Assembly (NCBI RefSeq): GCF_016806735.1
Contig: NZ_CP060530.1
Span: 360,001 to 392,000, forward strand
Length of the DNA: 32,000 bases
Reading direction: 5' to 3'
Source: Candidatus Micrarchaeum sp.
Lineage (GTDB): Archaea; Micrarchaeota; Micrarchaeia; Micrarchaeales; Micrarchaeaceae
Part shown: piece after piece, positions 2,800 through 26,898 of the stretch
How positions within the stretch are numbered: position 1 is the first letter of the stretch
Layout: the number at the start of each line of letters is the position of its first letter
Notes under the pieces: model-generated
Databases searched by the model: none
Told to the model about the DNA's origin: nothing
What the model saw: only the letters and a program-made list of their open reading frames with translations
Program-made: the position numbers and the translations under genes

Positions 2800-2957
2800 T
2801 CAAGGCCCCGTAAGCATTGGATAAGTAAGTTTATATCAAAACGGAGATTATAAAACTTTTGTTTGCTTTGCAAAACCGGAAATGCCCATAACCAATTGCC
2901 ATACTGTTAAGCTTATTAAAGATAAGTCGGCAAACTACTTACTGTTAAGTATGCTAT

Positions 2958-3031
2958 GCCCCTGTAGTATAACTTGGATAGAACACGAGCTTGCGGAGCT
3001 TGTGATCCGGGTCCAAATCCCGGCAGGGGCG
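2958..3031 (+). tRNA. tRNA-Arg (anticodon GCG at 2993-2995), no encoded CCA, with atypical D stem and T loop
   Basis: Hand fold gives a perfect 7-bp acceptor stem (GCCCCTG/CAGGGGC) and discriminator G. The anticodon stem is CGAGC/GCTTG with loop TTGCGGA. The T stem is CCGGG/CCCGG. Deviations are a T loop of TCCAAAT (C where the near-universal U55 is expected) and an A/A mismatch in the D stem (2969 versus 2982). Confidence 0.75.
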
Positions 3032-3032
3032 T
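3020..3032. repeat. Left copy of the 13-nt direct repeat CCGGCAGGGGCGT (tRNA-Arg 3' end), candidate att core
   Basis: Exact match, in the same orientation, to 5157-5169. Confidence 0.7.
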
Positions 3033-3169
3033 ATAACCCACAGTAAGGAACCCTTATATAACGATTTAAATAAGTAAAGGCAACACCGCACTTAAAGAAA
3101 AGGATCCGCTACTATACCGATTTATATAGGACTTGATGGAGGAGATGGAAGAATAAAGACCATCAAGTT

Positions 3170-3547
3170 TTAGGTTAGTCTATGACCTCTCCATTCAAAA
3201 AACCAAGCTAAGCCTTCTAACATTACTAAAGCACTTCCAATAAACCAAAATACTAAAAATAAAATATCAATCAATGAAATACCTACTAAACTTTTGAGCT
3301 TTAAAAGTAAGGCTGATTCAATTAATGTAAGAGCTAACAACATAAAGCTTAAACCGATCAAAATTTTATTATGCCTTTTTGTGTTGTTGTTTAGTTCTTT
3401 GATTAGGGACAATAATTCAGAACTACTTCCAACATTGTTTATATTGTCTCGCACTTCTCCAGTAATTGTTATTAATCTTTCAAGAGAATCTTCAAGTTTT
3501 TTACTTCTATCAATGTCCTCATTTTTATTTTTCATAGAAAAACCCAT
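3170..3547 (-). CDS. Hypothetical membrane protein: hydrophilic N-terminal half followed by two C-terminal TM helices
   Basis: ORF track 3170-3562 begins at a TTG; the first ATG is at 3547 (MGFSMKNKNEDIDRSKK...). TM segments are ILIGLSFMLLALTLIESALLL and LIDILFLVFWFIGSALVMLEGLAWF. It is last in a three-gene minus-strand unit. I recognise no family. Confidence 0.5.
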   Translation of the reverse strand: MGFSMKNKNEDIDRSKKLEDSLERLITITGEVRDNINNVGSSSELLSLIKELNNNTKRHNKILIGLSFMLLALTLIESALLLKLKSLVGISLIDILFLVFWFIGSALVMLEGLAWFFEWRGHRLT

Positions 3548-3571
3548 ACCATCCGAATACAATAAACATTA

Positions 3572-3835
3572 TTAACTTGTCCTATTTCTATTGGCAAGCC
3601 ATCTAGCACCCTTTGGATATGCTAAAATCAATCCTATAGCAATCAATACTGCACTTATAAGTATACCTACTAAATCCCAGAATATGCCAGAGAATAAGAA
3701 GGTAAAGTTAGAGGTGCTTATCGTTTTGTGATAACTAGTTATGTAAGCATTATATGATAAGACAAGGATAACTATCGCTATGATGGTGAGAACAAGGCCT
3801 GTAATCTGTTTTAGGTGCAACATAATATCAGCCAT
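3572..3835 (-). CDS. Hypothetical small membrane protein (87 aa, 2 TM)
   Basis: Its ATG at 3833-3835 overlaps the stop of the upstream ORF by 8 nt (ATGGCTGA), which suggests translational coupling. It has two long hydrophobic segments. No family recognised. Confidence 0.5.
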   Translation of the reverse strand: MADIMLHLKQITGLVLTIIAIVILVLSYNAYITSYHKTISTSNFTFLFSGIFWDLVGILISAVLIAIGLILAYPKGARWLANRNRTS

Positions 3836-4388
3836 TTAATGGCAATATTCCTGCAATGCTCAATATTAATATTAATTCAAGTATGATTAAAAAAATAAAT
3901 GCCAAGTATGAAACAAATTTACTTTTAGAAAAAATCTTTTCCGATTTTTTGTGTTGTAGCCTTAGGGCTATACCTGCAAACAAAATAATAAGAAACATGA
4001 TTAAGAATACACCGTATAACTCACTAGTGATTGGAATAATGAAACTACAACTATGTATTTTTATGCTATTGCTACTGTTACTACAGATGGAACTATTTAA
4101 AAAATCTAAAGAAGTCAAAGAAGCAAATAATAATATGATTATTGAGATAATGGTGTTAAAAAATACTCTCTCTTCTTCAATGTCTCCATTTAGTTCAAAA
4201 GTATACATTATTAGGTATGTGGCCCCTAAACTAATTACTGATGCATAAATTATGTTGGCACTAAGGGATTCTTTAAGAAGTAAATAAAGGATAACTACAG
4301 TCACGATTATCGAAAAAAGCACTATTAATTCTTTTGTTTCTATAGTTGCCTGCTTAATCTTTTCTTTTAGGTACCTTATGTTTATCAT
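3828..4388 (-). CDS. Hypothetical polytopic membrane protein (186 aa, about 5 TM)
   Basis: ATG at 4386-4388, first gene of the minus-strand unit. Multiple hydrophobic helices and a Ser/Asn-rich loop (NSSICSNSSNSIKIHSCS). No family recognised. Confidence 0.55.
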   Translation of the reverse strand: MINIRYLKEKIKQATIETKELIVLFSIIVTVVILYLLLKESLSANIIYASVISLGATYLIMYTFELNGDIEEERVFFNTIISIIILLFASLTSLDFLNSSICSNSSNSIKIHSCSFIIPITSELYGVFLIMFLIILFAGIALRLQHKKSEKIFSKSKFVSYLAFIFLIILELILILSIAGILPLNG

Positions 4389-4448
4389 AGGTATACAGAA
4401 AGATATATCACCAAAATCAATAAAAGCCTTACACGCTAAGTAGTTTTG

Positions 4449-4886
4449 ATGCGTATGGGTGCTGGAGCAAAGATAGGAGGAGTTATATTTCTTCTAATTA
4501 TTCTCGCAGGTGTATACTACCTTTATTCTATAGGGACTTTTGCTACACTATTATCAACACCTATATCATCAATTGTAAATAATCCTGCTAGTTATTTAGG
4601 AAAACAGATTACAGTAACAGGAGATTTAGGAGACGGAGATATAAGTGGAATAAACTGGTATGGTCTTTATAGTACAGTGGGTTATGTAGAAGTTTATATA
4701 AATAACGAAAGTCCATATGCTATCTACGATTTTGGTTACAATTATACTATGACTGGATTATTTACAAAAACGGTTGGTTGTTCAGAATTTGGGATAGTAA
4801 GTCTTGGAAATTGCATTGGAGGTTTTGGTAGTAATACAGAGATTTATTACTTGAATGTAACTTCTGTAAAACCCGCTACACCTTAA
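4449..4886 (+). CDS. Hypothetical N-terminally anchored extracellular protein (about 145 aa)
   Basis: The track start at 4446 is a TTG and an ATG follows at 4449. An N-terminal TM or signal anchor (IGGVIFLLIILAGVYYLY) precedes a Gly/Tyr-rich, probably beta-rich domain with N-X-S/T sequons. It is divergent from the 4388 unit. Confidence 0.55.
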   Translation: MRMGAGAKIGGVIFLLIILAGVYYLYSIGTFATLLSTPISSIVNNPASYLGKQITVTGDLGDGDISGINWYGLYSTVGYVEVYINNESPYAIYDFGYNYTMTGLFTKTVGCSEFGIVSLGNCIGGFGSNTEIYYLNVTSVKPATP

Positions 4887-4896
4887 ATGTGACACT

Positions 4897-5091
4897 ATGG
4901 TTAATTGGAAATTTGCTTTGTTTTTTTATGGTCTGATAGTGGCGGTTATATTTCTTGTATTTCTGACATTTATAGAAATTTCTTATTTTGGGATAGACTT
5001 TAATACAATATTTATGAGCATACTCATTATATCAAGCTTATACATTATAATAAAAGTTGCAATAGAAAAGCGACCAAAACTCAGAAAGTAA
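4897..5091 (+). CDS. Hypothetical small membrane protein (64 aa, 2 TM)
   Basis: ATG lies 10 nt after the stop of the preceding ORF. Two hydrophobic helices and a basic C terminus (EKRPKLRK). Confidence 0.45.
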   Translation: MVNWKFALFFYGLIVAVIFLVFLTFIEISYFGIDFNTIFMSILIISSLYIIIKVAIEKRPKLRK

Positions 5092-5156
5092 TAATTATCA
5101 ACTTTGCCAGAGGTAAGATACAAATAACAGCAGGTTCCTTATCGAGAAGAGGGCAA

Positions 5157-5169
5157 CCGGCAGGGGCGT
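5157..5169. repeat. Right copy of the 13-nt direct repeat CCGGCAGGGGCGT, candidate att core
   Basis: Exact match to 3020-3032. It lies in a noncoding spacer at the point where composition returns to normal. Confidence 0.7.
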
Positions 5170-5227: not shown

Positions 5228-5419
5228 CTACTCCGATTTGGGGTGCTCTTTCATGAATAGCGAGACCACAATGAATATAATGCTAAGGACAAATTCAAAC
5301 AGTATCAGTTCAACCTCGGTAAATGTGCCTCTGGCTTTCCAATAAGCTATCGCGCTTGTCGCCCACGCTATTATCAAACCTACACCGACGCCACGGACAT
5401 AATATTTTCTTATTTTCAT
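5228..5419 (-). CDS. Small 2-TM membrane protein, paralog of 5432-5647
   Basis: 63 aa. Its N-terminal helix YVRGVGVGLIIAWATSAIAYWKAR matches the C-terminal helix of the upstream ORF. An AGGAG Shine-Dalgarno-like motif sits in the 12-nt spacer. Confidence 0.6.
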   Translation of the reverse strand: MKIRKYYVRGVGVGLIIAWATSAIAYWKARGTFTEVELILFEFVLSIIFIVVSLFMKEHPKSE

Positions 5420-5431
5420 TGCTTCGCTCCT

Positions 5432-5647
5432 TTACTTTGACCTCATCCTTACGCTTAAGTACGCTATCGCGCTAGTGACCCATGCTATTGTGAGCCCAAT
5501 CCCCACTCCGCGTATATAAGCATTATCCCTAAAATGGCCAATCATGTAAAGTATCACGCCCAAAACAAGCTCCAGCATTATAAGAGCAAGTATCAGCTTT
5601 GGATAAGTATCTATCGCGCCGATATTGGTCTTTATTTTATCCGGCAT
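5432..5647 (-). CDS. Small 2-TM membrane protein, paralog of 5228-5419
   Basis: 71 aa. Its C-terminal helix YIRGVGIGLTIAWVTSAIAYLSVR matches the downstream ORF, and the similarity is also visible at the DNA level. Confidence 0.6.
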   Translation of the reverse strand: MPDKIKTNIGAIDTYPKLILALIMLELVLGVILYMIGHFRDNAYIRGVGIGLTIAWVTSAIAYLSVRMRSK

Positions 5648-5789: not shown

Positions 5790-6530
5790 TTATCGGTTGA
5801 CCGGTGTTATATTAAGCTCTATCTGGATCGCTATGCGGTCTGTCGTATTTGTGTTGCCTACGCTAAGCTGCAGCCTGCCAGGGGAATATACGCCGGATAC
5901 TGTGGCATTGGTCCCTGCCATTACAAGAACTTGCTGCGATGCATTTTCCGAAGCATTCGCCAAGGAAGATTCTCCAAATATAATAACGCCTGAATTTTTC
6001 TGGTTTGCCTCTGCTGTCAATTTGACATAGGATACCTGGCTTATGTTGAAAGTCAAATTCGAATAAGCAATGCTTACTGTCTTAAGTATCAGGTACTTGC
6101 TGCCTTTCATATACGTAGACTGCGATGCTACTGTCGCATTTTGAAGGAATAATGTCTTGTTAAACAGTGTCGATTTTGGAGTACTTGCCCTGCTGGTATT
6201 AAATCCGGCTTTGGTTGAAGAATTATAATTATCATTGCCCATGCCGCTGCGGTTGCCTGCAGCCAAGGCGTCTGTTGCATTAACCGAGGTACGGTTTAAA
6301 AATTGCACCCGGCTGCCATTATGCCCATTGCCAATTGCGCTTGAATTAACCTCGTGCATTCCATGGCTGGACGAGTTTGAGTAATTAATATGGCTTGTTG
6401 GCACCGGCATGCCTCCAGAGTGCGGATAGATCTGCCCAGAGCTTATCGCTCCGTATAACATAAGTGCAATTATCGGGATCGCAATAACGATGCCTAAAGC
6501 TCTGGCGTGGTATTTTGTCTTTTTCATCAT
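5790..6530 (-). CDS. N-terminally anchored, Asn/Ser-rich, sequon-rich extracellular protein (hypothetical)
   Basis: The track ORF extends to a TTG at 6656. The likely start is ATGATG at 6530 (MMKKTKYHARALGIVIAIPIIALMLYG), giving a basic N terminus plus signal anchor. Many N-X-S/T sites follow (NYSNSS, NRTSVNAT, NKT, NAT, NLT, NIS...). Confidence 0.6.
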   Translation of the reverse strand: MMKKTKYHARALGIVIAIPIIALMLYGAISSGQIYPHSGGMPVPTSHINYSNSSSHGMHEVNSSAIGNGHNGSRVQFLNRTSVNATDALAAGNRSGMGNDNYNSSTKAGFNTSRASTPKSTLFNKTLFLQNATVASQSTYMKGSKYLILKTVSIAYSNLTFNISQVSYVKLTAEANQKNSGVIIFGESSLANASENASQQVLVMAGTNATVSGVYSPGRLQLSVGNTNTTDRIAIQIELNITPVNR

Positions 6531-6860
6531 GTCGCCTGACGAACATTGCCGAGTAAGCGCAGCAGAAAGCGCATCTTGACTGAAAGCACCACTTATTTTC
6601 ACCTTTGGGCTTAAATAGGCTCTTGTATTTAGCGGGAATTCTTGTATTCGCATCAAGCTTTTGGTTATATAAATGGATTATTGGGAGTATTGCAGCCTAA
6701 TCGAGTTGCCATAAACAAAGTTTATAACTGAGCCTTTCTTTCCATAAGCAAGCCGTAGTGGTTTGGCGATGGCACAAATTTTTCCAAAAGCAGCCAAAAC
6801 GCCTTGCCAAGTAACAAATAATTGCGATAAGTGTTAATATCCATTGCAGGATATGCTATT

Positions 6861-7400
6861 ATGCCTAAAAGCCAGAATCCAATATATGCGTTGGGCTATT
6901 CGAATCTCGAAATAGCCAAGTTCATAAAAATTCTCAAGTCACATTCGGTTGATACGCTCGTCGACGTTCGAACAATCCCGAAATCAAGGCATCAGCCGGA
7001 TTTCAATGAGGCAAGGCTTTCATCACGCTTGAAACGGAACGGCATAGAATACGTGCACTTCAAGGAGCTTGGCGGCCTGAGGAAGCCATCAAAAGAATCC
7101 ATAAACATGGGATGGAGAAACGAGAGCTTCAGGGGATTTGCAGACTATATGCAGACCAGAGCCTTTGCCAGCGCCGTATTGAAACTCATAGGGCTAAGCA
7201 GGAAGCACACGCTGGCTATGATGTGTGCAGAGGGCAACCCATTCAGGTGCCATAGATCGCTCATAGCAGATGCGCTTACGGTAAGGGGAAGGAAGGTTTA
7301 CCACATATCTGGTATTTCAGGATCAAGGCCGCACGAACTTACATCGTTTGCCAAGGTAAAGGGTACAAAGATAACATATCCGAAAAGCCGGAGCGCATAG
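6861..7400 (+). CDS. DUF488 family protein
   Basis: The track start at 6831 is a GTG and an ATG lies at 6861. The motif pattern fits my memory of DUF488: IYALGYSN, LVDVRTIPKSRHQPDFN, FKELGG, RGFADYMQT, MCAEGNPFRCHRSLIADAL. Confidence 0.7.
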   Translation: MPKSQNPIYALGYSNLEIAKFIKILKSHSVDTLVDVRTIPKSRHQPDFNEARLSSRLKRNGIEYVHFKELGGLRKPSKESINMGWRNESFRGFADYMQTRAFASAVLKLIGLSRKHTLAMMCAEGNPFRCHRSLIADALTVRGRKVYHISGISGSRPHELTSFAKVKGTKITYPKSRSA

Positions 7401-7428
7401 TGCCACACCAATCGATGCAGGTGATGTT

Positions 7429-7992
7429 TTGAAATACAAAAATATACGCTACAAGCTTTCAAAGGATGCGCTGATAATGTTCGTAGGAATAAATCCCCAT
7501 CCTGGTTCCTATGAAAGGGGCGTACCGTTCTCGAACAACAAGATGTTCTGGTATCTTCTGAGCAGAGCGAATATAATAAATGAGCCAATCTCACTTCTAA
7601 AAAACGATTCTGAGCTCAGTGAAATGTATGAAAAAAGGTTTGCCGAAAAGTATCAGCTCAACTTCATAAACCTGATAAACAGGCCTACTGTCGATGTCTC
7701 AAAGCTCAAAAAAGCAGAAGCCGCTTACGGAATAAGGCGAATGCTCATGGCTGTTAAAACTTACAAGCCTAGAGTTGTGTGCTTCATAGGCAAAGTCACT
7801 TATCAGATGTTTGACGGTTCCGGAATCCCTGATTACGGTCCAAAAGAAGCGCTTTTCGGATCAAAGGTTTATCTATGCCATTTTCCAATAAGAGGCTACG
7901 CGTCCATACGGATAAACGAATTGAGAAAAATCATGAAAGTCGCAAAGGATCTGGACAGCAAAAAAACGCAATTGAAAAATAAGCACGAATAA
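7429..7992 (+). CDS. Uracil-DNA glycosylase superfamily protein, Mug/TDG-like (family 2-like)
   Basis: VGINPHPGSYERGVPFSNNKMFWYLL aligns with E. coli Mug [27 protein letters not shown]. The C-terminal motif is divergent. The start is a TTG at 7429 or an ATG at 7477. It lies 28 nt after the DUF488 gene. Confidence 0.6.
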   Translation: MKYKNIRYKLSKDALIMFVGINPHPGSYERGVPFSNNKMFWYLLSRANIINEPISLLKNDSELSEMYEKRFAEKYQLNFINLINRPTVDVSKLKKAEAAYGIRRMLMAVKTYKPRVVCFIGKVTYQMFDGSGIPDYGPKEALFGSKVYLCHFPIRGYASIRINELRKIMKVAKDLDSKKTQLKNKHE

Positions 7993-8000
7993 GGATATCT

Positions 8001-8396
8001 TCACGCCTTGCCGGCAGCCTCCATGACTATGGCGTTAAGAAGGCCCGAAACCTTGTTTATAACGTCAAGGTTGCGGTCAAGTCTGTGCTCCTTTGCCATG
8101 TGCAGCGGGTTGTAATAGCGCAGTATCGTCTTGTTGTCTTCGCTGCTTATCAAAATCCTGAGTGGAAGGTCTATGGCTATGCTGAGCTTGTCCTGCATAA
8201 GCTTTGTGCCAGCTTCTGGGCTGCCGAAAATTATCACAGTAGCATTATCCATATCCATGCCTGCGTCCCTTGCGTTCTTCTTGTGGTCTATAACTGCGAA
8301 GATATGTATGCCGCGCTTTTCTATTGCAGCGGTTGCCCTCTCAAGCACAGTATCAAATGCATCTTCGCTGCTGACCTTCACGAGCCCGTCAACCAT
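8001..8396 (-). CDS. DUF302 domain protein
   Basis: 131 aa. The pattern IIFGSPEAGTKLMQDKLSIAIDLPLRILI...YYNP is typical of DUF302. Confidence 0.7.
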   Translation of the reverse strand: MVDGLVKVSSEDAFDTVLERATAAIEKRGIHIFAVIDHKKNARDAGMDMDNATVIIFGSPEAGTKLMQDKLSIAIDLPLRILISSEDNKTILRYYNPLHMAKEHRLDRNLDVINKVSGLLNAIVMEAAGKA

Positions 8397-8413
8397 GTCA
8401 AAACCAGTAGAGA

Positions 8414-8650
8414 TTACTTGTCGTCAGTATGCTCTGGCAGAGAGAAGATTACCTCATCCATTTTGTCCTGCGAGCCCTCCTTCAGCACTTCGCTCTTGCG
8501 TATTATGAAGTTGTTGCCTCCGGATTTCTGAGCCACTTCGTATATGTGCTTCATATAGAGAAGGAGTGCCTCTTTGTTTTTCTTCTTTATCTCCTTTTTG
8601 TAGGATTCGCAGGCAAGGCACGTATGTCTCTTCTTGCCAGGTTCGGTCAT
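8414..8650 (-). CDS. Hypothetical small Lys/Glu-rich protein (78 aa)
   Basis: Likely ATG at 8650 (MTEPGKKRHTCLACESYKKE...); the track ORF is longer. It ends 17 nt upstream of the DUF302 gene on the same strand. No family recognised. Confidence 0.4.
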   Translation of the reverse strand: MTEPGKKRHTCLACESYKKEIKKKNKEALLLYMKHIYEVAQKSGGNNFIIRKSEVLKEGSQDKMDEVIFSLPEHTDDK

Positions 8651-8801
8651 CAAGCTTATTACTATCTTGTCTTCCAACAACCCACCCTTTATATAGATAA
8701 AATAATACACGATACCTATATTTATAGTTTTGTTTTTGGGGTGATGGCTAACAAAACATATAAATATTATCTACTTTTTAGTTAGGTTTAAAGGTGTTAA
8801 A

Positions 8802-9752
8802 ATGGTGGAAAAGGAACTGAATAAGGATGCAGGTATACAGACTAAGTCTGTGACATCGCAGCAGTCTATATCTAATGCATCCCAGAATGCGCAAGGCACG
8901 GTACACAGATACGCTTGGATGTTGAATGGCGAGCAGGTTGTCGCAACACTGCCTGTAAAATACGCACTGGTCATAGGCTCGGTTCACGATACAAAACTGG
9001 GTCCACAAACGAGCAAGGTACAGCCAAAAAAGGTAAAGGTAAAAAACGTTGTCGCAACCAATTACAGGATCGCTTACCTTGATGGAAACGACGAGCTTTT
9101 CATGGACAAGAAAAGGGAGAAAGTCGGCCGCAACGGAAGGCAATTCTTCTTCTACAACAAGGACGCTTTCGAAAAATATCTCTCTGACGTCATAAAGCAC
9201 AACGATCAAATTCTTGAGGCCTACAAAAAGCAGGATCAGAAATTTGCGGACTATTACAGCAAGAAGCATACTCCTGGAAAATTTGCGAAGAAGCTTTTCA
9301 AAGAGGGCTATATAACATCCGTATACCTGCTCAACGACGTTGCCGAGGCCACAGAAGCGAGGTTCAAGAAAGGCACGATAAACAAGGGCATGATGGGCAC
9401 ATGGCTGACAAACAGGACTACCTCAAGGAACGCAAGCTTCCTTGACAGGTTCAAGCACGGCTTTGCCCTAAACGGTGTTGAGCTATATCTCCCGACTCTT
9501 GAAACAAACAAGTTTCTGCACGATTCCGGGAAGAATTTCCTTGAAGGGCTGACAAAGATAAAGATTAATGATGCAAAGAGCTCCATCACTAGGAAGGCGG
9601 AGTTCTATGTAAGGCCAAGCAAGGCATCTGCAGAGCAGATTGGAAAGCTCATAAGCGACATACTTGACAATGTCGTCGAAATGCGCGCCTACAGCGACAA
9701 GGACTTCGTGGCTGAAACATATCAGAATCTGGCAAGGAAGGACAATCCGTAA
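8802..9752 (+). CDS. Hypothetical soluble Lys-rich protein (316 aa), no recognised family
   Basis: ATG preceded by a GGTG motif (AAAGGTGTTAAAATG). No TM segments, a long clean ORF, followed by a pyrimidine/T-rich tract. Confidence 0.6.
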   Translation: MVEKELNKDAGIQTKSVTSQQSISNASQNAQGTVHRYAWMLNGEQVVATLPVKYALVIGSVHDTKLGPQTSKVQPKKVKVKNVVATNYRIAYLDGNDELFMDKKREKVGRNGRQFFFYNKDAFEKYLSDVIKHNDQILEAYKKQDQKFADYYSKKHTPGKFAKKLFKEGYITSVYLLNDVAEATEARFKKGTINKGMMGTWLTNRTTSRNASFLDRFKHGFALNGVELYLPTLETNKFLHDSGKNFLEGLTKIKINDAKSSITRKAEFYVRPSKASAEQIGKLISDILDNVVEMRAYSDKDFVAETYQNLARKDNP

Positions 9753-9789
9753 TTTCCTTCCCCTTCTTTTTCTTTTTGCTTTTGTTTTG
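9753..9789 (+). terminator. T-rich tract, candidate archaeal oligo-T terminator
   Basis: TTTCCTTCCCCTTCTTTTTCTTTTTGCTTTTGTTTTG follows directly after the stop of 8802-9752. Confidence 0.45.
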
Positions 9790-9796
9790 CGCTTGA

Positions 9797-11254
9797 TTAT
9801 CCCTTAGCCACGCCAATGGGCAGCAGCTGAGCAACTATTTTTGTTATTCCGGCACCGGCTACGCTTGCAACGACATCGTCAACGTTCTTGTACGCGAGCT
9901 CGGATTCCTCGCTTACAAGCTTCCTGTCCCTTACTCTGAGCTCTATGTCCTTGTCGCGCATGCTTCCGAGCGTCTTTGCCGCAGGTATCTCGCGTATGGC
10001 CTGGTGCCTGGACATTAGCCTTCCGGAACCATGGCACGAAGAGCCGAAGCTCTGCTTCATAGCTCCTTCAAGGCCTGCAAGAACGTAGCTTGAGGTTCCC
10101 ATGCTTCCGGGTATCAGGACAGGCTGCCCGTAATCGCGGTATATCCTTGGTATCTCTGCCCTTCCTGGGGCGAAGGCCCTGGTGGCTCCCTTCCTGTGCA
10201 CTATAAGCTTCATCCTTTTCCCGTCAACGTCGTGCTCTTCCTCCTTGGCTATGTTGTGGGCCACGTCGTAAACGAGGTGCATGCCAAGCTCGTCCCAGCT
10301 CTTCAAGAAAACCTTTTCGAAGCTCTTGCGTATGGAGTCCATCATAACCTGCCTGTTTGCAAACGCGAAATTGACCGCGCACTTCATGGCCTTTAGGTAA
10401 TCTTCGGCTTCCTTGGATTCCGTATGCGCGTAGCTAAGCTCAGGATCTACGAGCTTTATGTTGTTCTTGGCATTGTAGTCATTGAGCACCTTGAGGTAAT
10501 CGCTGCATACCTGATGGCCGTAGCCCCTGGAGCCGCTATGCACCATCACTACTACCTGGTCTTCATAAAGCCCGAAGGCCTTGGCTGTTTTCTCGTCAAG
10601 CACTTTTCCGACGCGCTGCACTTCAAGAAAATGATTTCCTGCTCCCAGAGTGCCAAGCTGCGGCACTCCTCTTTTTTTTGCCAGGTCGCTTACCCTGTCT
10701 GGGTCCGCTCCTTTCATGCATCCGTTCTCCTCGGTTCTTTCCAGGTCTTCTTCCACGCCGAAGCCCTGCTTTATGGCCTGTGCGGCTCCTTCGACTGCGA
10801 CCTTCTCCAGATCGCTTCTGGTAAATCCTTTTGCCGCCTTGCTTCCGACTCCGCTTGGAACCATATTGAAGAGCGTGTCCATTAAGCTGTCCAGCTTGGG
10901 CTTTACCTCGGCGAAGCTGAGATTGGTCCTTATGAGCCTGACTCCGCAGTTTATGTCAAATCCTATCGCCCCGGGTGAAACTATGCCGTTGCTGGCAGGG
11001 AACGCCGCAACGCCGCCTACCGGAAACCCATAGCCTTCGTGGCCGTCCGGCATTATGAGCATGTTCTTTACCATTGTCGGCAGCCCGGCTGCATTTATGG
11101 CCTGCTTCAGCGTCCTGTCGCGCTGTATGTTGTCAATTATGTAATCGTTGGCGAATATCTTCACTGGAACGTTCATGGATTTTTCCTGCGAAGCATCAAT
11201 CTGCCATTCGAAATTGCCCATCTTTTCTATCTTAATCTCTTTCCCTTCCATCAT
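9797..11254 (-). CDS. rtcB: RNA-splicing ligase RtcB (3'-phosphate/5'-hydroxyl tRNA ligase)
   Basis: Near-collinear with Pyrococcus RtcB as I recall it: MPDGHEGYGFPVGGVAAF, DINCGVR, GNHFLEVQ, HSGSRGYGHQ, IPGSMGTSSYV, CHGSGR and C-terminal PIGVAKG. Start is uncertain (ATG at 11254, 11251 or 11272; TTG at 11284). No intein. Confidence 0.95.
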   Translation of the reverse strand: MMEGKEIKIEKMGNFEWQIDASQEKSMNVPVKIFANDYIIDNIQRDRTLKQAINAAGLPTMVKNMLIMPDGHEGYGFPVGGVAAFPASNGIVSPGAIGFDINCGVRLIRTNLSFAEVKPKLDSLMDTLFNMVPSGVGSKAAKGFTRSDLEKVAVEGAAQAIKQGFGVEEDLERTEENGCMKGADPDRVSDLAKKRGVPQLGTLGAGNHFLEVQRVGKVLDEKTAKAFGLYEDQVVVMVHSGSRGYGHQVCSDYLKVLNDYNAKNNIKLVDPELSYAHTESKEAEDYLKAMKCAVNFAFANRQVMMDSIRKSFEKVFLKSWDELGMHLVYDVAHNIAKEEEHDVDGKRMKLIVHRKGATRAFAPGRAEIPRIYRDYGQPVLIPGSMGTSSYVLAGLEGAMKQSFGSSCHGSGRLMSRHQAIREIPAAKTLGSMRDKDIELRVRDRKLVSEESELAYKNVDDVVASVAGAGITKIVAQLLPIGVAKG

Positions 11255-11390
11255 GATCACTTTCAAAAGCATATGCTGGCGCAAACGCCGTGCTGCGCCT
11301 ATTTTATGGAGTCTTTATAAATCTATTCGTTGCAAAATTAATTGTTTGTATTCATTAGCACGAGATTAGTTATCTATGCTTGTTAATTTA

Positions 11391-11398
11391 TTTATATT
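11391..11398 (+). promoter_or_regulatory. Candidate box A/TATA element of the atp operon
   Basis: TTTATATT lies about 38 nt upstream of the atpK ATG, which fits a short leader carrying GGTGA at about 11421-11426. Confidence 0.4.
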
Positions 11399-11431
11399 GC
11401 TACGTTAAAGCTTAATGATTTGGTGAAAAAC

Positions 11432-11659
11432 ATGGTAGTAGCGGTAAGTCCGTTATATGCTGTTGCTGCATCTATAGCAATAGCCGGAGGATTGATAGGA
11501 ACTGGAATGGCGCAGCAGGGAATCGGAGCTGCAGGAATGGGAATAATAGCCGAAAAGCCTGAAAAATTTGGACAGGTGCTATTCTTCTTCGTGATACCAG
11601 AAACGCTTTGGATAATAGGATTCGTGCTCGGCCTCATACTGCTGCTGCAGATACTCTGA
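11432..11659 (+). CDS. atpK: A-type ATP synthase subunit K (proteolipid c subunit, single 2-TM hairpin)
   Basis: Gly/Ala-rich helix 1 (GGLIGTGMAQQGIGAAGMG) and helix 2 with the conserved carboxylate (FFFVIPETLW). A GGTGA motif 6 nt upstream supports the ATG at 11432; the track start at 11420 is a TTG. Confidence 0.9.
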   Translation: MVVAVSPLYAVAASIAIAGGLIGTGMAQQGIGAAGMGIIAEKPEKFGQVLFFFVIPETLWIIGFVLGLILLLQIL

Positions 11660-11677
11660 AGTTAGCCAGTGGTGCAA

Positions 11678-12256
11678 ATGGGCCTCGAAGAGATCGTGGC
11701 AGGCATAGAAAAGCGCAGGGAGCAGGAAACATCCAAGCTCCTCAGCGAAGCCAGGGCCGAAGCGGATAAAATAATAAACGATGCAAAGGCACGGGCGGCT
11801 TCGGAATCAAAGGAAACGATTTCCCGGGCCGAGTTCGAGGCTTCGCAGATAAAGGCAAGGGAGCAGTCCAAGGCAAATATAGAGGCCAAAAGGATACTCT
11901 ACAGCTCGATGGCTGAAAAGCTCTCAGCAGCGGAAGCCGAGCTCAAGGCTTCGATATCGGAATACAAAAATACGGACGATTACAAGGCCTTGCTGCTTAA
12001 GCTGTACTCCAACGCTCTTGATGCACTAGGGGCCGACTGCGAGGTACATGCTGCCAAGGACGACATGCAGCTGATAAAAAAGAAATTCCCGAAGGCCAAG
12101 CTTTCAGAAGCCCCCGAAGGCTTCGCGTTCGGCCTGTACGCAAACTCTTCAGACGGAAAAATGGCAATAGACTATGGCCTTGACAGCATGCTCTCAAAGG
12201 TAAGGGATGGATTCTATTCAAGGCTTATCAAGGTTATAAATGGTAAAAATGACTGA
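11678..12256 (+). CDS. atpE: A-type ATP synthase subunit E
   Basis: The N-terminal Ala/Glu/Lys-rich coiled region, a C-terminal globular part, its size and its position after atpK all fit. The ATG at 11678 is preceded by GGTG; the track start at 11669 is a GTG. Confidence 0.85.
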   Translation: MGLEEIVAGIEKRREQETSKLLSEARAEADKIINDAKARAASESKETISRAEFEASQIKAREQSKANIEAKRILYSSMAEKLSAAEAELKASISEYKNTDDYKALLLKLYSNALDALGADCEVHAAKDDMQLIKKKFPKAKLSEAPEGFAFGLYANSSDGKMAIDYGLDSMLSKVRDGFYSRLIKVINGKND

Positions 12257-13316
12257 TTCAACGTATACTGGGAAGTACGGCAGCCTAAGGGCGATGGCAA
12301 CCTCGCTTCTCAGCACTGGCTTCTACGAGCAGGCTTCTGGGAAATCTCCGGAAGAGATACTCAAAATGCTCTCGGAGACCAGATACAGGAAGCAGATAGA
12401 CGAGCTTTCGCAGCTGTACCAGATGCCAGACCTTTTCGAGGCTGTAATAAACGCCACAATGGCAAAATCGCTGCAGGAAGCCTATATCGCAATGCCGCCG
12501 CTGGCTCAGCCGTTCGTAATGGCCTACATAAGCAAGTGGGATATAGAAAACATAAAGGTTGTGCTCTCTTCGAAGACAATGGGCTACGAGCTTACAGATA
12601 CATCGCATTTCATGCTGGCCGTTAAGAATCCAGTCGGCATACTTGCGGGCAGCATAAGCAAGCCGGACTATGCCAACCTGCTGGCGCAGAAGGACGTAGT
12701 TTCGGTAGTCAATTATCTTGCAAAGTTCGGCTACGGGACAGTGCTGATGTCACACATAGACGACTATGCAAAGAACGGATCGCTGGCACCCATGCTCACC
12801 GAGCTTGGCTTCTACTACTATACGCATCTTGCAGAGTCGCTGCGCTTCTACAAGGGCGACGAGGGCCCGGTGTACGAATATGTCATAGCGATGATAGACG
12901 CTGAAAACGTGCTAAACGCCGCCAAGGCTGCATATTCCGGCGTGCAGGACATCCAGCAATACGTAATAAAAGGAGGCAGCATAAGCGCCTCGCAGATCGC
13001 CGAGGCGGTCAATGGAAAAGCTTCCGAAGCCCTGTCTAAGCTGCTGGGAGATGGCGCGCAGGACTCGCTTTCCAGGTACATTACTGCAGGAAAGCTCTCA
13101 GAACTGGAAGCGGTGCTGAAAAGGTCGCTGTATAAACGGTTCATGCCGACTTTCTCCTCATCCTCGCAATCATTGTCTTATATAATGAGCTACATACTCA
13201 GGCTCGAAGCCGAAAGGGACGCGCTCAGGGCGTTGCTGTTGCAGGGCTATTACGGGATAAAGGCCGACTTTGCGCTATACGCGCACAACGAAGCGGTGAA
13301 GCAGAATGGAAGCTAA
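12240..13316 (+). CDS. atpC: A-type ATP synthase subunit C (V-type d homolog)
   Basis: About 355 aa, helical, positioned between E and F. It overlaps the atpE stop; an alternative ATG lies at 12249. Confidence 0.85.
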   Translation: MVKMTDSTYTGKYGSLRAMATSLLSTGFYEQASGKSPEEILKMLSETRYRKQIDELSQLYQMPDLFEAVINATMAKSLQEAYIAMPPLAQPFVMAYISKWDIENIKVVLSSKTMGYELTDTSHFMLAVKNPVGILAGSISKPDYANLLAQKDVVSVVNYLAKFGYGTVLMSHIDDYAKNGSLAPMLTELGFYYYTHLAESLRFYKGDEGPVYEYVIAMIDAENVLNAAKAAYSGVQDIQQYVIKGGSISASQIAEAVNGKASEALSKLLGDGAQDSLSRYITAGKLSELEAVLKRSLYKRFMPTFSSSSQSLSYIMSYILRLEAERDALRALLLQGYYGIKADFALYAHNEAVKQNGS

Positions 13317-17979: not shown

Positions 17980-19920
17980 ATGTTGTTGAAACCTGCAAGG
18001 ATGTCAAGGGAGCGCATAATCATATCGAAGGAGCACCGCCAGCCGGTAATTACGGCCCTTCATGACCTTGGCGTCATGCAAATAGAGCAGCTTCCGGAGA
18101 ACGTTGCCGAGATGCTTAACAAGAGCGACGACCTTGATTACAGGCAGATAAGCGATTACGACCAAAAGTTCAGGAGCCTCGAATCCATGCTCTACAAATA
18201 CGAGCCCAAGGATAAATACTCCATGGAAGACACTGCAGAGCTGATAAAGAAGGCCGATTCGGTAACGATAACGGAAAGGGTCGCACAGATAACAAGGGAA
18301 ATGGCATCAGCGGAAGCCGAGCTCAAGGAGCTCAGGGACACCATGAACCTTTTGAAGCGTATGCCGCATACAAGGCACGATCTGGCGATATTTGGGACCG
18401 ACAAGATTGCATCATTCTTGGTGGAGGGCAGGGACTTGCAGAAATTCAATTCGGAAGCGCACAAAGAGATAAAGGAGTGCGTGATCCTGAAGGGAGAATA
18501 TTCAACAATAGCGAGCATAAGCAGGGATTCGGAAAAGGAGTTTGGCAACTATGTAAGAAGCATGAAACTCTCAGTGGAAGCCATACCGAAAATGTCAGGG
18601 CCCGTGTCTGCAAACGAAAAGCTCATAGAATCCAAAATATCGGAATCGGAATCCAAGTACGAAGCCCTCAAATCAGAGCTTACCAACATATCGGAAATAC
18701 ACTATCCTCTTGTAAGCGCCATTCGCGAGCAATTAGACTTAGAGATGGAAAAGCTTGACGTAGTGTCCAAGTTCGGCTTTGGAATCAACGTCATAGCAAT
18801 CGAGGGCTGGGTGCCTGAGGAAGACCTTCACAGGCTGAGGTCTGCGCTTAAGCGCATAACCAACGACGGCTTCATAATGGAGAAGATACACACCAAGGAG
18901 CTTCCTCCAACAAAGCTTTCAAATCCCGTTACGACGAGGCTATTCGAGTTTTTCATAAGGTTCTATTCGCTGCCAAAAAGCGACGAGTTCGACCCAACGC
19001 TCATATTTGCGGTAGTGTTCCCGATATTCTTCGGCTTCATGATAGGCGACGTAGGATACGGTGCCGTTATGCTTCTCGGCTCAATATGGCTTCTTCACAG
19101 AATAAGACACCCGCCGAAGAAAAGCCACATACCGAAACCGATAAGCAAATTTGTCAACACAATAATAAGCAACAACGGCCTCACGGTGCTGGCAAAATCC
19201 ATAATGCCGGGCGCAGTGATAGCCATATTTCTCGGCGTAATATTCAATGAATACTTCGGTTTCCAGCTTCCTTATACTGCAATCTTCAACGTTGAGACTG
19301 GATTGCCGACACTGCTGCTCGTATCCGGCTGGATAGGCGTTGCGATGGTATCTTTCGGGTTCGTGCTGGGATTCCTGAACAATCTTGCAATAGGGCACAA
19401 AAAGCATGCAGTCGGAAGGATAGGCTGGCTCATGGCTGCATGGGGCATAGTCATATTCGGCCTTGCAGTTCTCCACAAGCAGCCGCTATGGTTCCCTAAT
19501 TATTCCGTGGTGCTTGCATACTTCCTGCTTATCGGCGGAATAATAATGTTTCTTGTCACTGAAGGCTTTGAATCGCTCATGGAACTGCCATCTCTCATAA
19601 GCCACATACTTTCATATACTAGGCTCATAGGCATATTGCTGGCTTCGGTCATACTCGCGCAGGTTATAGACTTCATATTCATGCATTCACTGACGCATTC
19701 AATACCTCTTGCCATACTGGGCATAGTGATACTCATAGTGGGCCAGCTCTTCAATATAGCCATAGCGCTATTCGAGCCAGGAATACAAGGCGCAAGGCTT
19801 ATATACGTGGAATTCTTCTCCAAGTTCTTCTCTGGAAACGGCAGGGAGTTCAGGCCGTTTGCGAGCAGGAGGCAGCGCACCGTAAGCACGGTAAAAGACG
19901 AACAACTCATACAGCGCTGA
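17980..19920 (+). CDS. atpI: A-type ATP synthase subunit I (stator a-subunit homolog)
   Basis: A hydrophilic N-terminal domain of about 330 aa precedes a polytopic C-terminal domain. HILSYTRLIGILLAS contains the conserved stator Arg (compare V-type SYLRLWALSLAH). A GGTG motif lies upstream of the ATG. Confidence 0.92.
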   Translation: MLLKPARMSRERIIISKEHRQPVITALHDLGVMQIEQLPENVAEMLNKSDDLDYRQISDYDQKFRSLESMLYKYEPKDKYSMEDTAELIKKADSVTITERVAQITREMASAEAELKELRDTMNLLKRMPHTRHDLAIFGTDKIASFLVEGRDLQKFNSEAHKEIKECVILKGEYSTIASISRDSEKEFGNYVRSMKLSVEAIPKMSGPVSANEKLIESKISESESKYEALKSELTNISEIHYPLVSAIREQLDLEMEKLDVVSKFGFGINVIAIEGWVPEEDLHRLRSALKRITNDGFIMEKIHTKELPPTKLSNPVTTRLFEFFIRFYSLPKSDEFDPTLIFAVVFPIFFGFMIGDVGYGAVMLLGSIWLLHRIRHPPKKSHIPKPISKFVNTIISNNGLTVLAKSIMPGAVIAIFLGVIFNEYFGFQLPYTAIFNVETGLPTLLLVSGWIGVAMVSFGFVLGFLNNLAIGHKKHAVGRIGWLMAAWGIVIFGLAVLHKQPLWFPNYSVVLAYFLLIGGIIMFLVTEGFESLMELPSLISHILSYTRLIGILLASVILAQVIDFIFMHSLTHSIPLAILGIVILIVGQLFNIAIALFEPGIQGARLIYVEFFSKFFSGNGREFRPFASRRQRTVSTVKDEQLIQR

Positions 19921-19982
19921 AGTTTCTCTCTGTCAAAGCTGTGGCTTGGCTCGCATAAAATAAGCGTGCACAAAATTTGTTT

Positions 19983-20483
19983 TCAGGTAACTTTTTCCAG
20001 CACGGTTCCTGATATGGTATGCGGAAATCCTGTTTGTATGTCGGTGTAGTTTATAACTACATATCCTTTGAAAAGAGCCCCGGGATTGCCGGTGAACACC
20101 GTATTGTTGCTCCAGCACTGCAGTGTTGCCGTGCTGTTTCCTGTTATTGTGACGTTGGATCCTATCTGCACATCTATGCCGTTGGGGAAATAAACCATGT
20201 GGTTGAGCGAATCGTTTGAATTGCAGCCTATTGCGGTTATATTTATCGGAGAACTTGTTGACTGCTGCATGTTTACTGTAAGCATCCCGTTGCTGCTGAG
20301 AGTGCTGAATATGCAGCTGAAATCTGCAGGGAATATGCAGCTGGTGCTGACGAATGAGCTTGGGTTGAACAGGCCGAGCTCAAATAGTACTCCGAGAGCA
20401 ATTGCGATTATGAGTATGGCCCACCCGTATGTTATGAGGTATTCCATGGCGCTTTGGCCTTTGGCCCCTCTGCCGTTTTTCAT
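19983..20483 (-). CDS. Class III signal peptide (archaeal type IV pilin-like) protein
   Basis: MKNGRGAKG/QSAMEYLITYGWAILIIAIALGVLF shows a short basic leader, a G/Q cleavage-type site and a hydrophobic helix. The mature part is Ser/Thr/Asn-rich with sequons. The track ORF starts at a GTG at 20513; ATGs lie at 20501 and 20483. Confidence 0.75.
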   Translation of the reverse strand: MKNGRGAKGQSAMEYLITYGWAILIIAIALGVLFELGLFNPSSFVSTSCIFPADFSCIFSTLSSNGMLTVNMQQSTSSPINITAIGCNSNDSLNHMVYFPNGIDVQIGSNVTITGNSTATLQCWSNNTVFTGNPGALFKGYVVINYTDIQTGFPHTISGTVLEKVT

Positions 20484-20593
20484 AGCGTTTGCAGGTTCCA
20501 TAAACACACGCACAAAATTCTCAGCAAAAAGCTAAATTACTTAAGCAGTGCAGTGGTCATTCCAAGCGCAGAGCACGCAGCAGTATAATGCCC

Positions 20594-25778: not shown

Positions 25779-26777
25779 ATGAAGGCGCTCATTTTCGAAA
25801 AGCAGGGAACTGAAAACCTTAGGGTTGCTGATGTAGAAAAACCAGCACCAAAGGAAGGCGAAATCCTGATAAAAGTTGCAATGGCGGGCGTAAATCCGAT
25901 AGACAACATGATCATAAACGCAATACCTGGGATAAAGCCAATGCCGCATATAGCCGGCGCTGAGTTCGCCGGTACTGTAGAAGCCGTAGGCCCTTCGGTC
26001 AAATCCGCAAAGCAGGGTGACAGGGTCGCGGTATTCAACAGGTATTTCGATGGCACCTGCGACATGTGCAGCAAAGGCATGGAGATGCTATGCAGAAATG
26101 GCTATATAACCGGAGTCATGAACAACGGCGGTTTTGCAGAATACATATCAGTCAACGAGAGGAATGCAGTAAAGCTCCCTGATGAAACAAGCTGGGAGAT
26201 GGCGGCTTCGCTGCCTGTAGCTGCACTTACGTCATATCACGCGATTAACCGCGCAGGTCTTAACAAGGGTGAAACAGCAGTCATACTCGGCGCTTCTGGC
26301 AACACCGGCAGGTTCGCCCTTCAGTTTGCAAAAGAACAAGGCGCAAAAGTTATAGCCGTATCAAGGAAGCAGTCGATGGCGGATTTCGGCGCGGATTATA
26401 CCGTATCTTCGGAAAACGCCATTGAAAAGATAAAGGAAATAACAAAGGGCAAAATGGCGGATTTCGTTCTAAACTCTCTTGGAGAGAAATTCTGGAACGA
26501 AAGCTTTTTGATGATGGGGAGCAATTCCAGGCTCGCCACATTCGGAACGCTTACGGGCCCGCAGGTAAGCCTGGATCTTTCAGGCGTGTACTCAAAACAT
26601 GCCACGATAATGGGTTCTACAGGCGGTTCCATGCGCGAGTTTAAGGAACTGGTTTCGAAATCGCCAAGCTACAAGCTCAAAGTATGGAAGAAGTTCAGGC
26701 TTGAAGATGGGCAGGCAGCGATAAGGGCGCTATCCTCTAGCGATAGGGACGGAAGGGTAATGCTGCAGATAAGCTGA
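25779..26777 (+). CDS. Zinc-type alcohol dehydrogenase / quinone oxidoreductase-like protein (MDR superfamily)
   Basis: MKALIFEKQG...GEILIKVAMAGVNPID, GAEFAGTVEAVG, a CDMCSKGMEMLC zinc-lobe remnant and the nucleotide-binding motif LGASGNTGRFALQFAK. The track ORF from 25686 is an upstream extension through the promoter region. Confidence 0.8.
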   Translation: MKALIFEKQGTENLRVADVEKPAPKEGEILIKVAMAGVNPIDNMIINAIPGIKPMPHIAGAEFAGTVEAVGPSVKSAKQGDRVAVFNRYFDGTCDMCSKGMEMLCRNGYITGVMNNGGFAEYISVNERNAVKLPDETSWEMAASLPVAALTSYHAINRAGLNKGETAVILGASGNTGRFALQFAKEQGAKVIAVSRKQSMADFGADYTVSSENAIEKIKEITKGKMADFVLNSLGEKFWNESFLMMGSNSRLATFGTLTGPQVSLDLSGVYSKHATIMGSTGGSMREFKELVSKSPSYKLKVWKKFRLEDGQAAIRALSSSDRDGRVMLQIS

Positions 26778-26801: not shown

Positions 26802-26898
26802 AGCCTCGAGAGGGATTTGAACCCTCGACCCCCTGTTTTCACAGCCCAATATGCTGAGCGTACGAGACAGGTGCTCTACCAGTCTGAGCTACCGAGGC
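26802..26898 (-). tRNA. tRNA-Thr (anticodon CGU at 26864-26862) with a 23-nt intron at the canonical 37/38 position
   Basis: Hand fold of the minus strand gives acceptor GCCTCGG/TCGAGGC (G7-U66 wobble), D arm GCTC-AGACTGGTA-GAGC and anticodon stem CCTGT/ACAGG. The T arm is GAGGG-TTCAAAT-CCCTC and the discriminator is U. Removing 23 nt restores the 7-nt loop CTCGTAA and a 74-nt tRNA. Confidence 0.85.
26838..26860 (-). other. tRNA-Thr intron (bulge-helix-bulge substrate)
   Basis: Intron sequence is CGCTCAGCATATTGGGCTGTGAA. It folds with an inner helix GCUC/GGGC, 3-nt bulges UA^C and AA^A at both splice sites, and a 4-position central helix CUCG/UGUG containing one U-U mismatch and one G-U pair. 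Confidence 0.7.

Follow-up and report, generated by a model that had tools for sequence, protein, structure and literature searches.

What is the AT-rich islet that directly follows a tRNA-Arg gene in the chromosome of Candidatus Micrarchaeum, and how did it come to be there? The window analyzed here is a 32,000-nt stretch of that chromosome, and the islet is the interval 3033-5156, which lies between two copies of a short direct repeat of the tRNA 3' end. The initial annotation had read it as an integrated element or its remnant that, for want of an integrase, was decayed, mobilized in trans, or of an undescribed type. The integration itself is borne out, as a close relative (locus L007; L numbers denote the loci recovered in this work) has the site empty, and DNA 88-98% identical to the islet occurs at other tRNA genes with repeats of their own. 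The islet is most probably a non-autonomous deletion derivative of a tyrosine-integrase element, site-specifically integrated in this chromosome. That it lacks an integrase holds; that it is of an undescribed type does not, since the islet belongs, as a member with an internal deletion, to a conventional tyrosine-integrase family, represented by the element at locus L071.

The insertion at tRNA-Arg

The target gene and the two attachment sites (attL and attR) are as follows.

2958-3031, + strand: tRNA-Arg(GCG), the integration target, attB side of attL (Rfam RF00005, 52.4 bits)
3020-3032, + strand: attL core, left copy of the 13-nt direct repeat CCGGCAGGGGCGT
5157-5169, + strand: attR core, right copy of CCGGCAGGGGCGT; host DNA resumes beyond it

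Both copies are where the initial annotation had placed them. The left core is made up of 4 nt of the T-stem, the acceptor 3' strand, the discriminator, and one further nucleotide, so that the repeat equals the final 12 nt of tRNA-Arg plus 1 nt (ARAGORN bounds the gene at 2957-3032, also with anticodon GCG). It is exactly 13 nt long because the bases adjoining the two copies differ (C/A at the left, A/C at the right). There are two copies of CCGGCAGGGGCGT in the window, both on the + strand, where shuffled sequences predict 0.03, and no third copy exists in the window even with one mismatch allowed. The islet had also been described as AT-rich, with composition normal again past the second copy, and computation agrees on both points: G+C content is 31.1% in the islet and 47.4% in the remaining window, and a sliding profile falls near ~3000 and recovers near ~5200. 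The G+C of third codon positions (GC3) likewise sets the islet apart, at 46-66% in nine genes of the host versus 17-34% in the five islet open reading frames (ORFs). The genes on either side are those of an archaeon and encode a GT4 glycosyltransferase, RtcB, A-type ATPase subunits, phenylalanyl-tRNA synthetase, and DNA ligase.

A scan of species-representative genomes yielded 43 Micrarchaeota loci, and the pairing of GT4 with tRNA-Arg is kept in ~25 of them. The empty site that the initial annotation had suggested seeking is found in L007, whose GT4 is 95% identical to that of the window at the amino acid level. The distance from the tRNA block to the downstream host block is 26 nt in L007 versus 2210 nt in the window, and the window's host genes from 5228 onward align with L007 9331-9740; by this alignment the L007 site is empty. 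At L008 (4644-5265), tRNA-Arg is followed by only ~49 nt from the left end of the islet; a deletion has taken the rest of the element together with host genes, up to the middle of a host uracil-DNA glycosylase gene, and the copy at this site is a decayed one. The deleted part is replaced by 575 nt with a 147-aa membrane ORF. At L067 the flank is 94.8% identical to the window, and the site holds a different element with the same ends. With one relative empty, one decayed, and one occupied by another element, the tRNA-Arg site is polymorphic and has been turned over among close relatives.

Directly past attR, on the - strand, lie two tandem paralogous small membrane proteins of 63 and 71 aa (5228-5419 and 5432-5647), which have host-like G+C and a common motif, GVG[VI]GL.IAW.TSAIAY; as they are conserved in the empty-site L007, they are host genes outside the element. 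Next to them (5790-6656, - strand) is a 288-aa Ser/Asn-rich, probably secreted protein of normal G+C that is absent from L007, where DUF488 directly follows the two small proteins; this gene is a separate indel beside the islet. The GT4-linked tRNA-Arg site is a hotspot in further loci (L023, L030, and L012). L023 has an unrelated AT-rich island at the site (~6300-9840), with a 386-aa ORF that is of the radical-SAM/SPASM maturase type by eye only; L030 has three tandem tRNA-Arg genes (8525-8871); and in L012 (9768-11168) tRNA-Arg(CCG) and tRNA-Arg(GCG) flank GT4, one on each side.

A family of mini-elements at tRNA genes

The islet is one of a family of 1.5-3.5 kb elements in Micrarchaeota whose targets are tRNA-Arg(GCG), tRNA-Thr(CGT), and tRNA-Thr(TGT). 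All copies have in common a left arm, a right arm, and a small gene, i87, and members are flanked by 11-13 nt repeats of their own tRNA 3' end. We reached these relatives through homologues of the islet's 186-aa ORF (78-93% identity) and 146-aa ORF and then read the junctions; target tRNAs were confirmed by Rfam. The islet-like DNA found away from tRNA-Arg is in L050, L054, L055, L060, L061, and L062. A complete 3.5-kb copy occupies an intron-containing tRNA-Thr(CGT) in L057 (repeat CTCTCGGGGCT), a 1.5-kb copy is found in tRNA-Thr(CGT) in L062 (and L061), and 2.4-kb copies are found in tRNA-Arg(GCG) in L066 and L067. The ~2.0-kb copy in tRNA-Thr(TGT), an intron-containing tRNA (core CTCTCAGGGCT), was pieced together from L054, which gives the junction of tRNA and left arm, and L060, which gives the right junction and whose contig ends at the left arm. 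In L050 a copy lies within a tandem array of core repeats at tRNA-Thr(CGT), and L066 has several family copies in one genome. L019 has a left arm and an i87 that is 87% identical to that of the window, yet its GT4 is only 58% identical; by this comparison the family element is far younger than the divergence of its hosts, and was thus horizontally transferred.

Several of these loci have features of their own. In L066 (8929-12874) three i87 copies or fragments surround one tRNA-Arg, one of them fused to the tRNA upstream region, and two paralogous 140-aa genes have a degenerate right-end motif between them, inside the locus; elements may have accreted or fused there. Five or more copies or variants of the tRNA 3' core are present in the L050 array (9450-12925), whose segments comprise a 248-aa gene, two ~65-nt repeated units, an islet-like element, and one further segment. 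In L054 (7907-9313) IS200/IS605-type and DDE transposase genes interrupt the right part, the break falling between tatacaggctatt and aggaagttgac. L057 encodes, on the - strand, a 389-aa protein without family assignment, in which a long coiled coil is combined with a novel N-terminal domain (1419-2588), and a 55-aa protein that is ribbon-helix-helix-like by eye and has no family match (2593-2760); we considered the former as a hidden recombinase or replicase, a reading left unsupported by matches of coiled-coil type only. The window itself contains an intron-containing tRNA-Thr(CGT) (26802-26898, - strand; Rfam 55 bits) that default ARAGORN missed. Its 3' end, CCCTCTCGAGGCT, is the site type used by the family elsewhere, and it is unoccupied, the neighboring gene ending at 26777.

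An integrase-bearing relative and a deletion scar

None of the five islet ORFs has a recombinase match in Pfam, PHROGs, or NCBIfam, and tblastn with the L071 integrase finds nothing across the whole window, in line with the initial annotation, which had seen no integrase in the islet. We also considered an integrase split between the borders, as in SSV-type elements, and rejected it: the border ORFs, i130 and i64, are membrane proteins with no recombinase signal.

The integrase is found only in L071. There, a right arm and an 11-nt core, CTCCTGGGGCT, lie at about 9143-9185, and the left terminal 40 nt adjoin a two-intron tRNA at about 18629-18790, most likely tRNA-Thr(GGT) (with the introns placed differently, ARAGORN gives Ser-GGA). 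Window 3034-3072 is 92% identical to L071 18629-18667, between the tRNA and the integrase start, and the window right end is 90% identical to L071 9155-9185. The L071 element is ~9.5 kb between its ends. Its integrase is a 394-aa tyrosine recombinase that starts ~70 nt from attL (PF00589, 85.5 bits; phrog_1, 6e-33) and is XerA-like (111 bits, under the equivalog cut-off). The element also has a 381-aa AAA_25 helicase-primase-like ATPase, about a dozen small ORFs, a 285-aa membrane protein, and i87 (90% nt identity), and its Pfam, PHROG, and NCBIfam matches include neither a transposase nor Cas1. L050 encodes a further tyrosine integrase next to tRNA-His (19579-20561), with 32% identity to the L071 protein, so such integrases are common in these genomes.

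The relation between the long and short forms can be read at the left end, where every mini-element consists of the 40-55 nt on the attL side of L071 joined to an inner block.

3088-3155, + strand: inner left block, the 3' stub of a small gene (...LKEKDPLLY...), 88% identical to L071 11226-11293

In L071 this block is 7.3 kb from the left terminus. The stub gene (...KDNIALKEKDPLLYEFIQDLMEEVEE*) is complete in L071 and L055, and the mini-elements are without its 5' part and start codon; in the window, frame translations show an in-frame premature stop at 3127-3129. A stub without a start in the mini-elements and a whole gene in L071 and L055 indicate that the direction of change is from full-length to mini-element, with a loss of ~7 kb, and the alignment places the deletion junction in the window at about 3073/3088. 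The odd left flank of L055 is accounted for by its match to the inner region of L071. We had also considered a structured RNA in the conserved "non-coding" left region, where Rfam finds tRNA only; the gene stub explains the conservation.

Terminal arms

Both ends of the element are conserved well beyond the core.

3033-3073, no strand assigned: left terminal arm, conserved in the family, with the inverted-repeat arm TAAGGAACC (3044-3052)
5122-5156, no strand assigned: right terminal arm, conserved in the family, with the inverted-repeat arm GGTTCCTTA (5133-5141), ending ...GAGAAGAGGGCA(A)

The left end of the family is TAACCCACAGTAAGGAACCCTTA, and the left arm, (A/T)TAACC..CAGTAAGGAACCCTTA, directly follows the tRNA. 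CAGTAAGGAACCCTTA is found beside the tRNA in the window and in L008, L019, L054, L057, L060, L061, L062, L064, L066, L067, and L068, and the full-length L071 has a version with one mismatch (TAGTAAGGAACCCTTA). At the right end, GGTTCCTTATCGAGAAGAGGGCA directly precedes the second core; CCTTATCGAGAAGAGGGCA stands immediately before the tRNA-derived core in the window and in L050, L055, L057, L060-L063, L066, and L071. The two arms are probably the binding sites of the integrase.

The 9-nt inverted pair noted at the outset, TAAGGAACC/GGTTCCTTA, is present 11 and 15 nt inside the two ends. Statistically the pair alone is only suggestive, as a 9-nt inverted match arises in ~1% (195/20000) of random pairs of 40-nt islet stretches. 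Both of its arms are conserved in every family member found, the integrase-bearing L071 included, and as the conserved heart of both terminal arms the pair gains the significance that statistics do not give it. The layout is that of a classical att site: the core reproduces the T-stem 3' strand, acceptor 3' strand, and discriminator of the target tRNA, and the two inverted arm motifs stand 15 and 11 nt away from it. A perfect hairpin, noted at the same time, was also found as described.

3131-3168, no strand assigned: 9-bp hairpin, ACTTGATGG (3131-3139) and CCATCAAGT (3160-3168), just downstream of the stop of i130, a - strand ORF

Conservation of the hairpin's 3' arm is limited to L054 and L060, the relatives that share the adjacent 130-aa ORF; the hairpin is probably lineage-specific and outside the mobility machinery.

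Mosaic structure

Window 4298-5155 is 97.3% identical to the tRNA-Thr elements of L061 and L062, yet the cores are wholly different. Mismatches to these elements are unevenly spread, with 18 in 4298-5121 (2.2%) versus five in the last 34 nt (14.7%; Fisher p = 0.0015), and the last 34 nt resemble the tRNA-Arg-lineage element of L066. This clustering marks the window element as mosaic. It is a recombinant: its backbone, ends, and core are of the Arg type, and part of its cargo comes from a recent exchange with a Thr-type relative. Further signs of mosaicism are the deletion of i186 in L061 and L062, the replacement of i130, and the internal pseudo right-end of L066, the last suggesting the fusion of two units.

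Spread as mini-elements or decay in place

The history that we propose begins with a full-length ancestor of ~9.5 kb, which would have had a Xer-like tyrosine integrase just inside attL and an AAA_25 ATPase, as well as roughly a dozen small ORFs and, on the attR side, a membrane-protein module. The element's att site would read right arm GGTTCCTTATCGAGAAGAGGGCA, an 11-13 nt tRNA-copying core, and left arm TAACCCACAGTAAGGAACCC, in that order, and its site-specific recombination with the tRNA 3' end would rebuild the tRNA and duplicate the core. The ~7-kb integrase-replication module would have been lost, with both arms, both cores, and the five-gene membrane cargo retained, and the cargo would have been reshuffled by homologous recombination with relatives. 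With the integrase module lost, the window copy could move only if a related integrase acted in trans. The parts of this history differ in strength. Tyrosine-recombinase chemistry at the tRNA-Arg site is likely. We lean slightly toward spread as a mini-element with a helper over independent decay in place, and we doubt that the window copy can still be mobilized today. Trans mobilization of the mini-elements draws indirect support from their presence at three tRNA genes, in distant hosts, in multiple copies, and with site turnover; the L050 arrays and the L066 internal pseudo-end speak only indirectly for accretion with a helper.

The most probable alternative is that an ancestral full-length insertion lost its module on site and never moved as a mini-element; it would by now be chromosomal DNA like any other, kept, perhaps, for a useful cargo gene. 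In favor of this, the islet proteins are 100% identical in six assemblies, from different samples, of Candidatus Micrarchaeum (A_DKE / ARMAN-1 / AZ1 lineage). L008 shows that decay in place does occur at the tRNA-Arg site, the mini-elements differ slightly in junction type, and neither a helper integrase nor a circular form was found. It is hard to reconcile with the recurrence of the same architecture, with arms kept and a junction within ~50 nt of attL, at three tRNA genes and in hosts down to 58% GT4 identity, or with several copies in one genome (L066). Neither the 13-nt repeat, which is perfect, nor the arms, both intact, show decay, and the right half of the islet is 97.8% identical to a tRNA-Thr element of another organism, pointing to recent exchange. 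Taken together, these observations make a fossil that never moved as a mini-element improbable.

Several results nonetheless weigh against a mobilizable deletion derivative. The identity across six assemblies fits a fixed, currently immobile copy. The L071 integrase has no homologue across the 32-kb window by tblastn, and no integrase is annotated among approximately the first 640 A_DKE proteins (Micr_00001-00640), the part of the table considered here (PMC8975820 Suppl. Data S5). Four scans of viral and metagenome collections returned no family member: exact-pattern scans for the conserved left end gave 0 matches in viral and metagenome contig collections, the metagenome set evidently being without these acid-mine samples, and protein scans with the i87 alignment gave no confirmed relatives in either type of collection. 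The L071 integrase, used as query against the viral collection, likewise gave no relative. Circular or excised forms did not turn up either, the short contigs tested having no terminal overlap; the ~2.1-2.3 kb contigs L056, L060, and L061, which might have been free circles, are integrated copies or fragments instead. The junctions of the mini-elements are of about three slightly different types, so recurrent independent deletions are a conceivable alternative to a single origin and spread. Only one full-length element was recovered, and its target is tRNA-Thr(GGT)-like, not tRNA-Arg; no full-length element specific for tRNA-Arg was found among the recovered loci. Finally, mosaic structure explains only partly how near-identical arms come to stand beside different cores.

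A bolder proposal, which we offer as speculation, is that the mini-elements, rather than being debris, are a successful satellite lineage of DPANN archaea, consisting of the arms and an i87-centered membrane module, without integrase or replication genes, and relying on the 9.5-kb helper for its integrase and perhaps also for its transfer vehicle. Such satellites might swap cargo by recombination and hop between tRNA-Arg and tRNA-Thr across Micrarchaeota species, a scenario that we regard as equally tentative. If it is true, the membrane module would be a selected payload, e.g., virion or vesicle membrane proteins, or surface proteins altering contact with the Thermoplasmatales host.

Site-specific recombination or target-site duplication

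The cores also bear on a second alternative, a non-autonomous transposon or casposon-like element for which the 13-nt repeat would be a target-site duplication from a staggered cut and the free form would be without a core. Near-identical arms flanked by differing, target-specific repeats of 11-13 nt are what such an element would leave, its inverted repeats could be the subterminal pair seen here, and casposons also target tRNA 3' ends, making duplications of 14-15 bp. The inverted repeats of the family are, against this, 11 and 15 nt inside the ends rather than terminal, repeat length varies (11 or 13 nt), and what the only autonomous relative encodes is a tyrosine integrase, with neither a transposase nor Cas1. 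In both L066 and L061 the attL core is not the same as the attR core. The attR core of L066 is GCCGGCAAGGGCGT, and the element's own tRNA has CAGGGGC, which pairs with GCCCCTG; the variant with A occurs as the natural tRNA-Arg allele in other Micrarchaeota, among them L019, itself the carrier of a family member. A core that matches a foreign allele cannot arise by fresh duplication of the target. In L050, imperfect cores in series separate segments, a pattern that would be left by successive site-specific insertions. The foreign core allele of L066 and the core arrays of L050 favor recombination over target-site duplication, and it is mainly on the foreign allele and the L071 integrase that we reject the duplication model as very improbable. 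The last alternative, that a chance 13-nt repeat stands beside native AT-rich membrane-protein genes and no mobile element exists, could appeal to the lack of any recognizable mobility gene in the cargo and is negligible, given 0.03 copies expected from shuffles, a composition break that coincides with both copies, the empty site in L007, and the same DNA at other tRNAs with their own repeats.

Cargo genes

The islet carries five genes, all of whose products have predicted transmembrane (TM) segments.

3170-3562, - strand: i130 (Micr_00388), soluble N-terminus and C-terminal TM segments; variable cargo
3572-3835, - strand: i87 (Micr_00389), 2-TM protein, the hallmark gene, in every family member including L071
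3828-4388, - strand: i186 (Micr_00390), polytopic membrane protein; variable cargo
4446-4886, + strand: i146 (Micr_00391), N-terminal TM anchor and a beta-rich domain of ~110 aa
4897-5091, + strand: i64 (Micr_00392), 2-TM protein that travels with i146; ratio of nonsynonymous to synonymous substitution rates (dN/dS) ~0.4

Searches of the cargo against Pfam, PHROGs, PADLOC, and NCBIfam give sub-threshold noise only. The i87 protein falls with 44 clusters at 67-92% identity around a nearly invariant core, SYNAY..YHKTISTSNFTFLFSGIFWDL, and its dN/dS is 0.05-0.31. For i146, dN/dS is 0.14-0.21, and an exhaustive HMMER search finds 8 representatives among 1.8 billion proteins. Its AlphaFold2 (AF2) model is of low confidence, with a mean predicted local confidence (pLDDT) of 62, and the best Foldseek matches are all oligonucleotide/oligosaccharide-binding (OB) folds (E 1.5e-3 or weaker), a hint that the domain may be OB-fold-like. 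The i146 protein has no homology to the L071 192-aa protein. Seven clusters match i186 at 78-93% identity (dN/dS 0.3-0.5); the gene is cleanly deleted in L061 and L062 and is absent in L057, L066, and L071. Homologues of i130 are found in L054 and L060 (78% aa identity; dN/dS ~1.3, from the single pair available), and unrelated membrane proteins replace it in other members, so it may be weakly constrained or not under selection, and may be decaying. It has no homology to the L071 285-aa membrane protein.

Krause et al. 2022 annotate the genes of the islet as Micr_00388-00392 in a table that, in the portion considered here, lists 100% matches to ARMAN-1 and AZ1 proteins (PMC8975820). The same portion gives low transcript levels for all five, at 0.15-0.93 transcripts per million (PMC8975820 Suppl. 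Data S5). As judged by dN/dS, i87 and i146 are under purifying selection, and this, together with the non-zero transcripts in culture, indicates that the islet genes are real. Among the neighboring host genes, RtcB gives a tblastn match in two pieces more than 1 kb apart in L010 (2730-5681) and L034 (4693-7632), which suggests an intein or other insertion.

Relation to known elements and implications

Micrarchaeota are ultrasmall, host-dependent DPANN archaea with genomes of ~1 Mb. To our knowledge their mobile elements are barely characterized, and the lineage is one without a genetic system. Mechanistically, the islet is a conventional tRNA-site integrative element. It has the tRNA-adjacent repeat, the empty site, and the foreign composition of a genomic island in the Islander sense; the integrase that an Islander-sense element has of its own is missing in the islet and is found only in L071. 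It is also a non-autonomous derivative resembling the cis-mobilizable elements (CIMEs), as it shares its arms with an autonomous element and has an internal deletion scar.

Among archaeal elements, the closest likeness is to class II plasmids and proviruses of the pNOB8 type: the target is a tRNA 3' end, the core restores the tRNA, and the L071 integrase is whole, Xer-like, and beside attL. The islet differs from them in that the window copy, at 2.1 kb, has neither an integrase nor a replication gene, its core is of 11-13 nt, and its host is of the DPANN group. The comparison with SSV1 drawn by the initial annotation holds for the tRNA-Arg target and the direct repeat of the tRNA 3' part and is otherwise loose. 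In SSV-type (class I) elements attP lies within the integrase gene, and integration splits the gene into two border fragments; in the islet it is membrane proteins that are encoded at the borders, and in L071 the integrase gene stays whole beside attL.

Two further comparisons can be drawn. CIMEs and other att-flanked, integrase-less derivatives of bacterial integrative and conjugative or mobilizable elements (ICEs and IMEs) are deletion-derived and conjugation-linked, form tandem arrays at tRNA sites, and need a related integrase. The islet resembles them in being att-flanked, deletion-derived, and without recombination genes, but the mini-elements are archaeal and have diversified into a family marked by its conserved arms and a single hallmark gene. 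Miniature inverted-repeat transposable elements (MITEs) depend on a transposase, are usually non-coding, and have many insertion sites. Like MITEs, the mini-elements are short non-autonomous deletion derivatives that keep their ends for an enzyme acting in trans, but they are specific for tRNA 3' ends, carry genes, and are associated with an integrase. A derivative of a casposon or DDE transposon does not match what is seen, as there are no inverted repeats at the extreme ends and no identical duplications of fixed length.

The archaeal "dark matter" islands of Makarova et al. 2014, insofar as they are summarized in PMC5498576, are AT-rich, encode small, mostly transmembrane ORFans, and are associated with XerD-family integrases. 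The islet is likewise AT-rich with small transmembrane ORFans, and its family is integrase-associated. The papers searched here, which treat the genomes of Micrarchaeota and Mancarchaeum as well as genomic islands in acidophilic archaea, contain no description of the islet family; the islands reported are larger, such as the five of up to 36.5 kb in Ca. Mancarchaeum (PMC5498576). Islands in a survey of the IslandViewer type are at least 4.2 kb (PMC12302457), a size under which 2.1-kb islets fall.

The islet resides in the cultivated Ca. Micrarchaeum harzensis A_DKE lineage, so predictions about it can be tested in laboratory co-culture. The family provides precisely mapped att sites, arms as well as core, for an archaeal Xer-like integrase, and a case of natural target switching between tRNA-Arg and three tRNA-Thr isoacceptors. 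These sites and their switching may aid studies of archaeal integrase specificity, and could possibly serve as a tool in these organisms.

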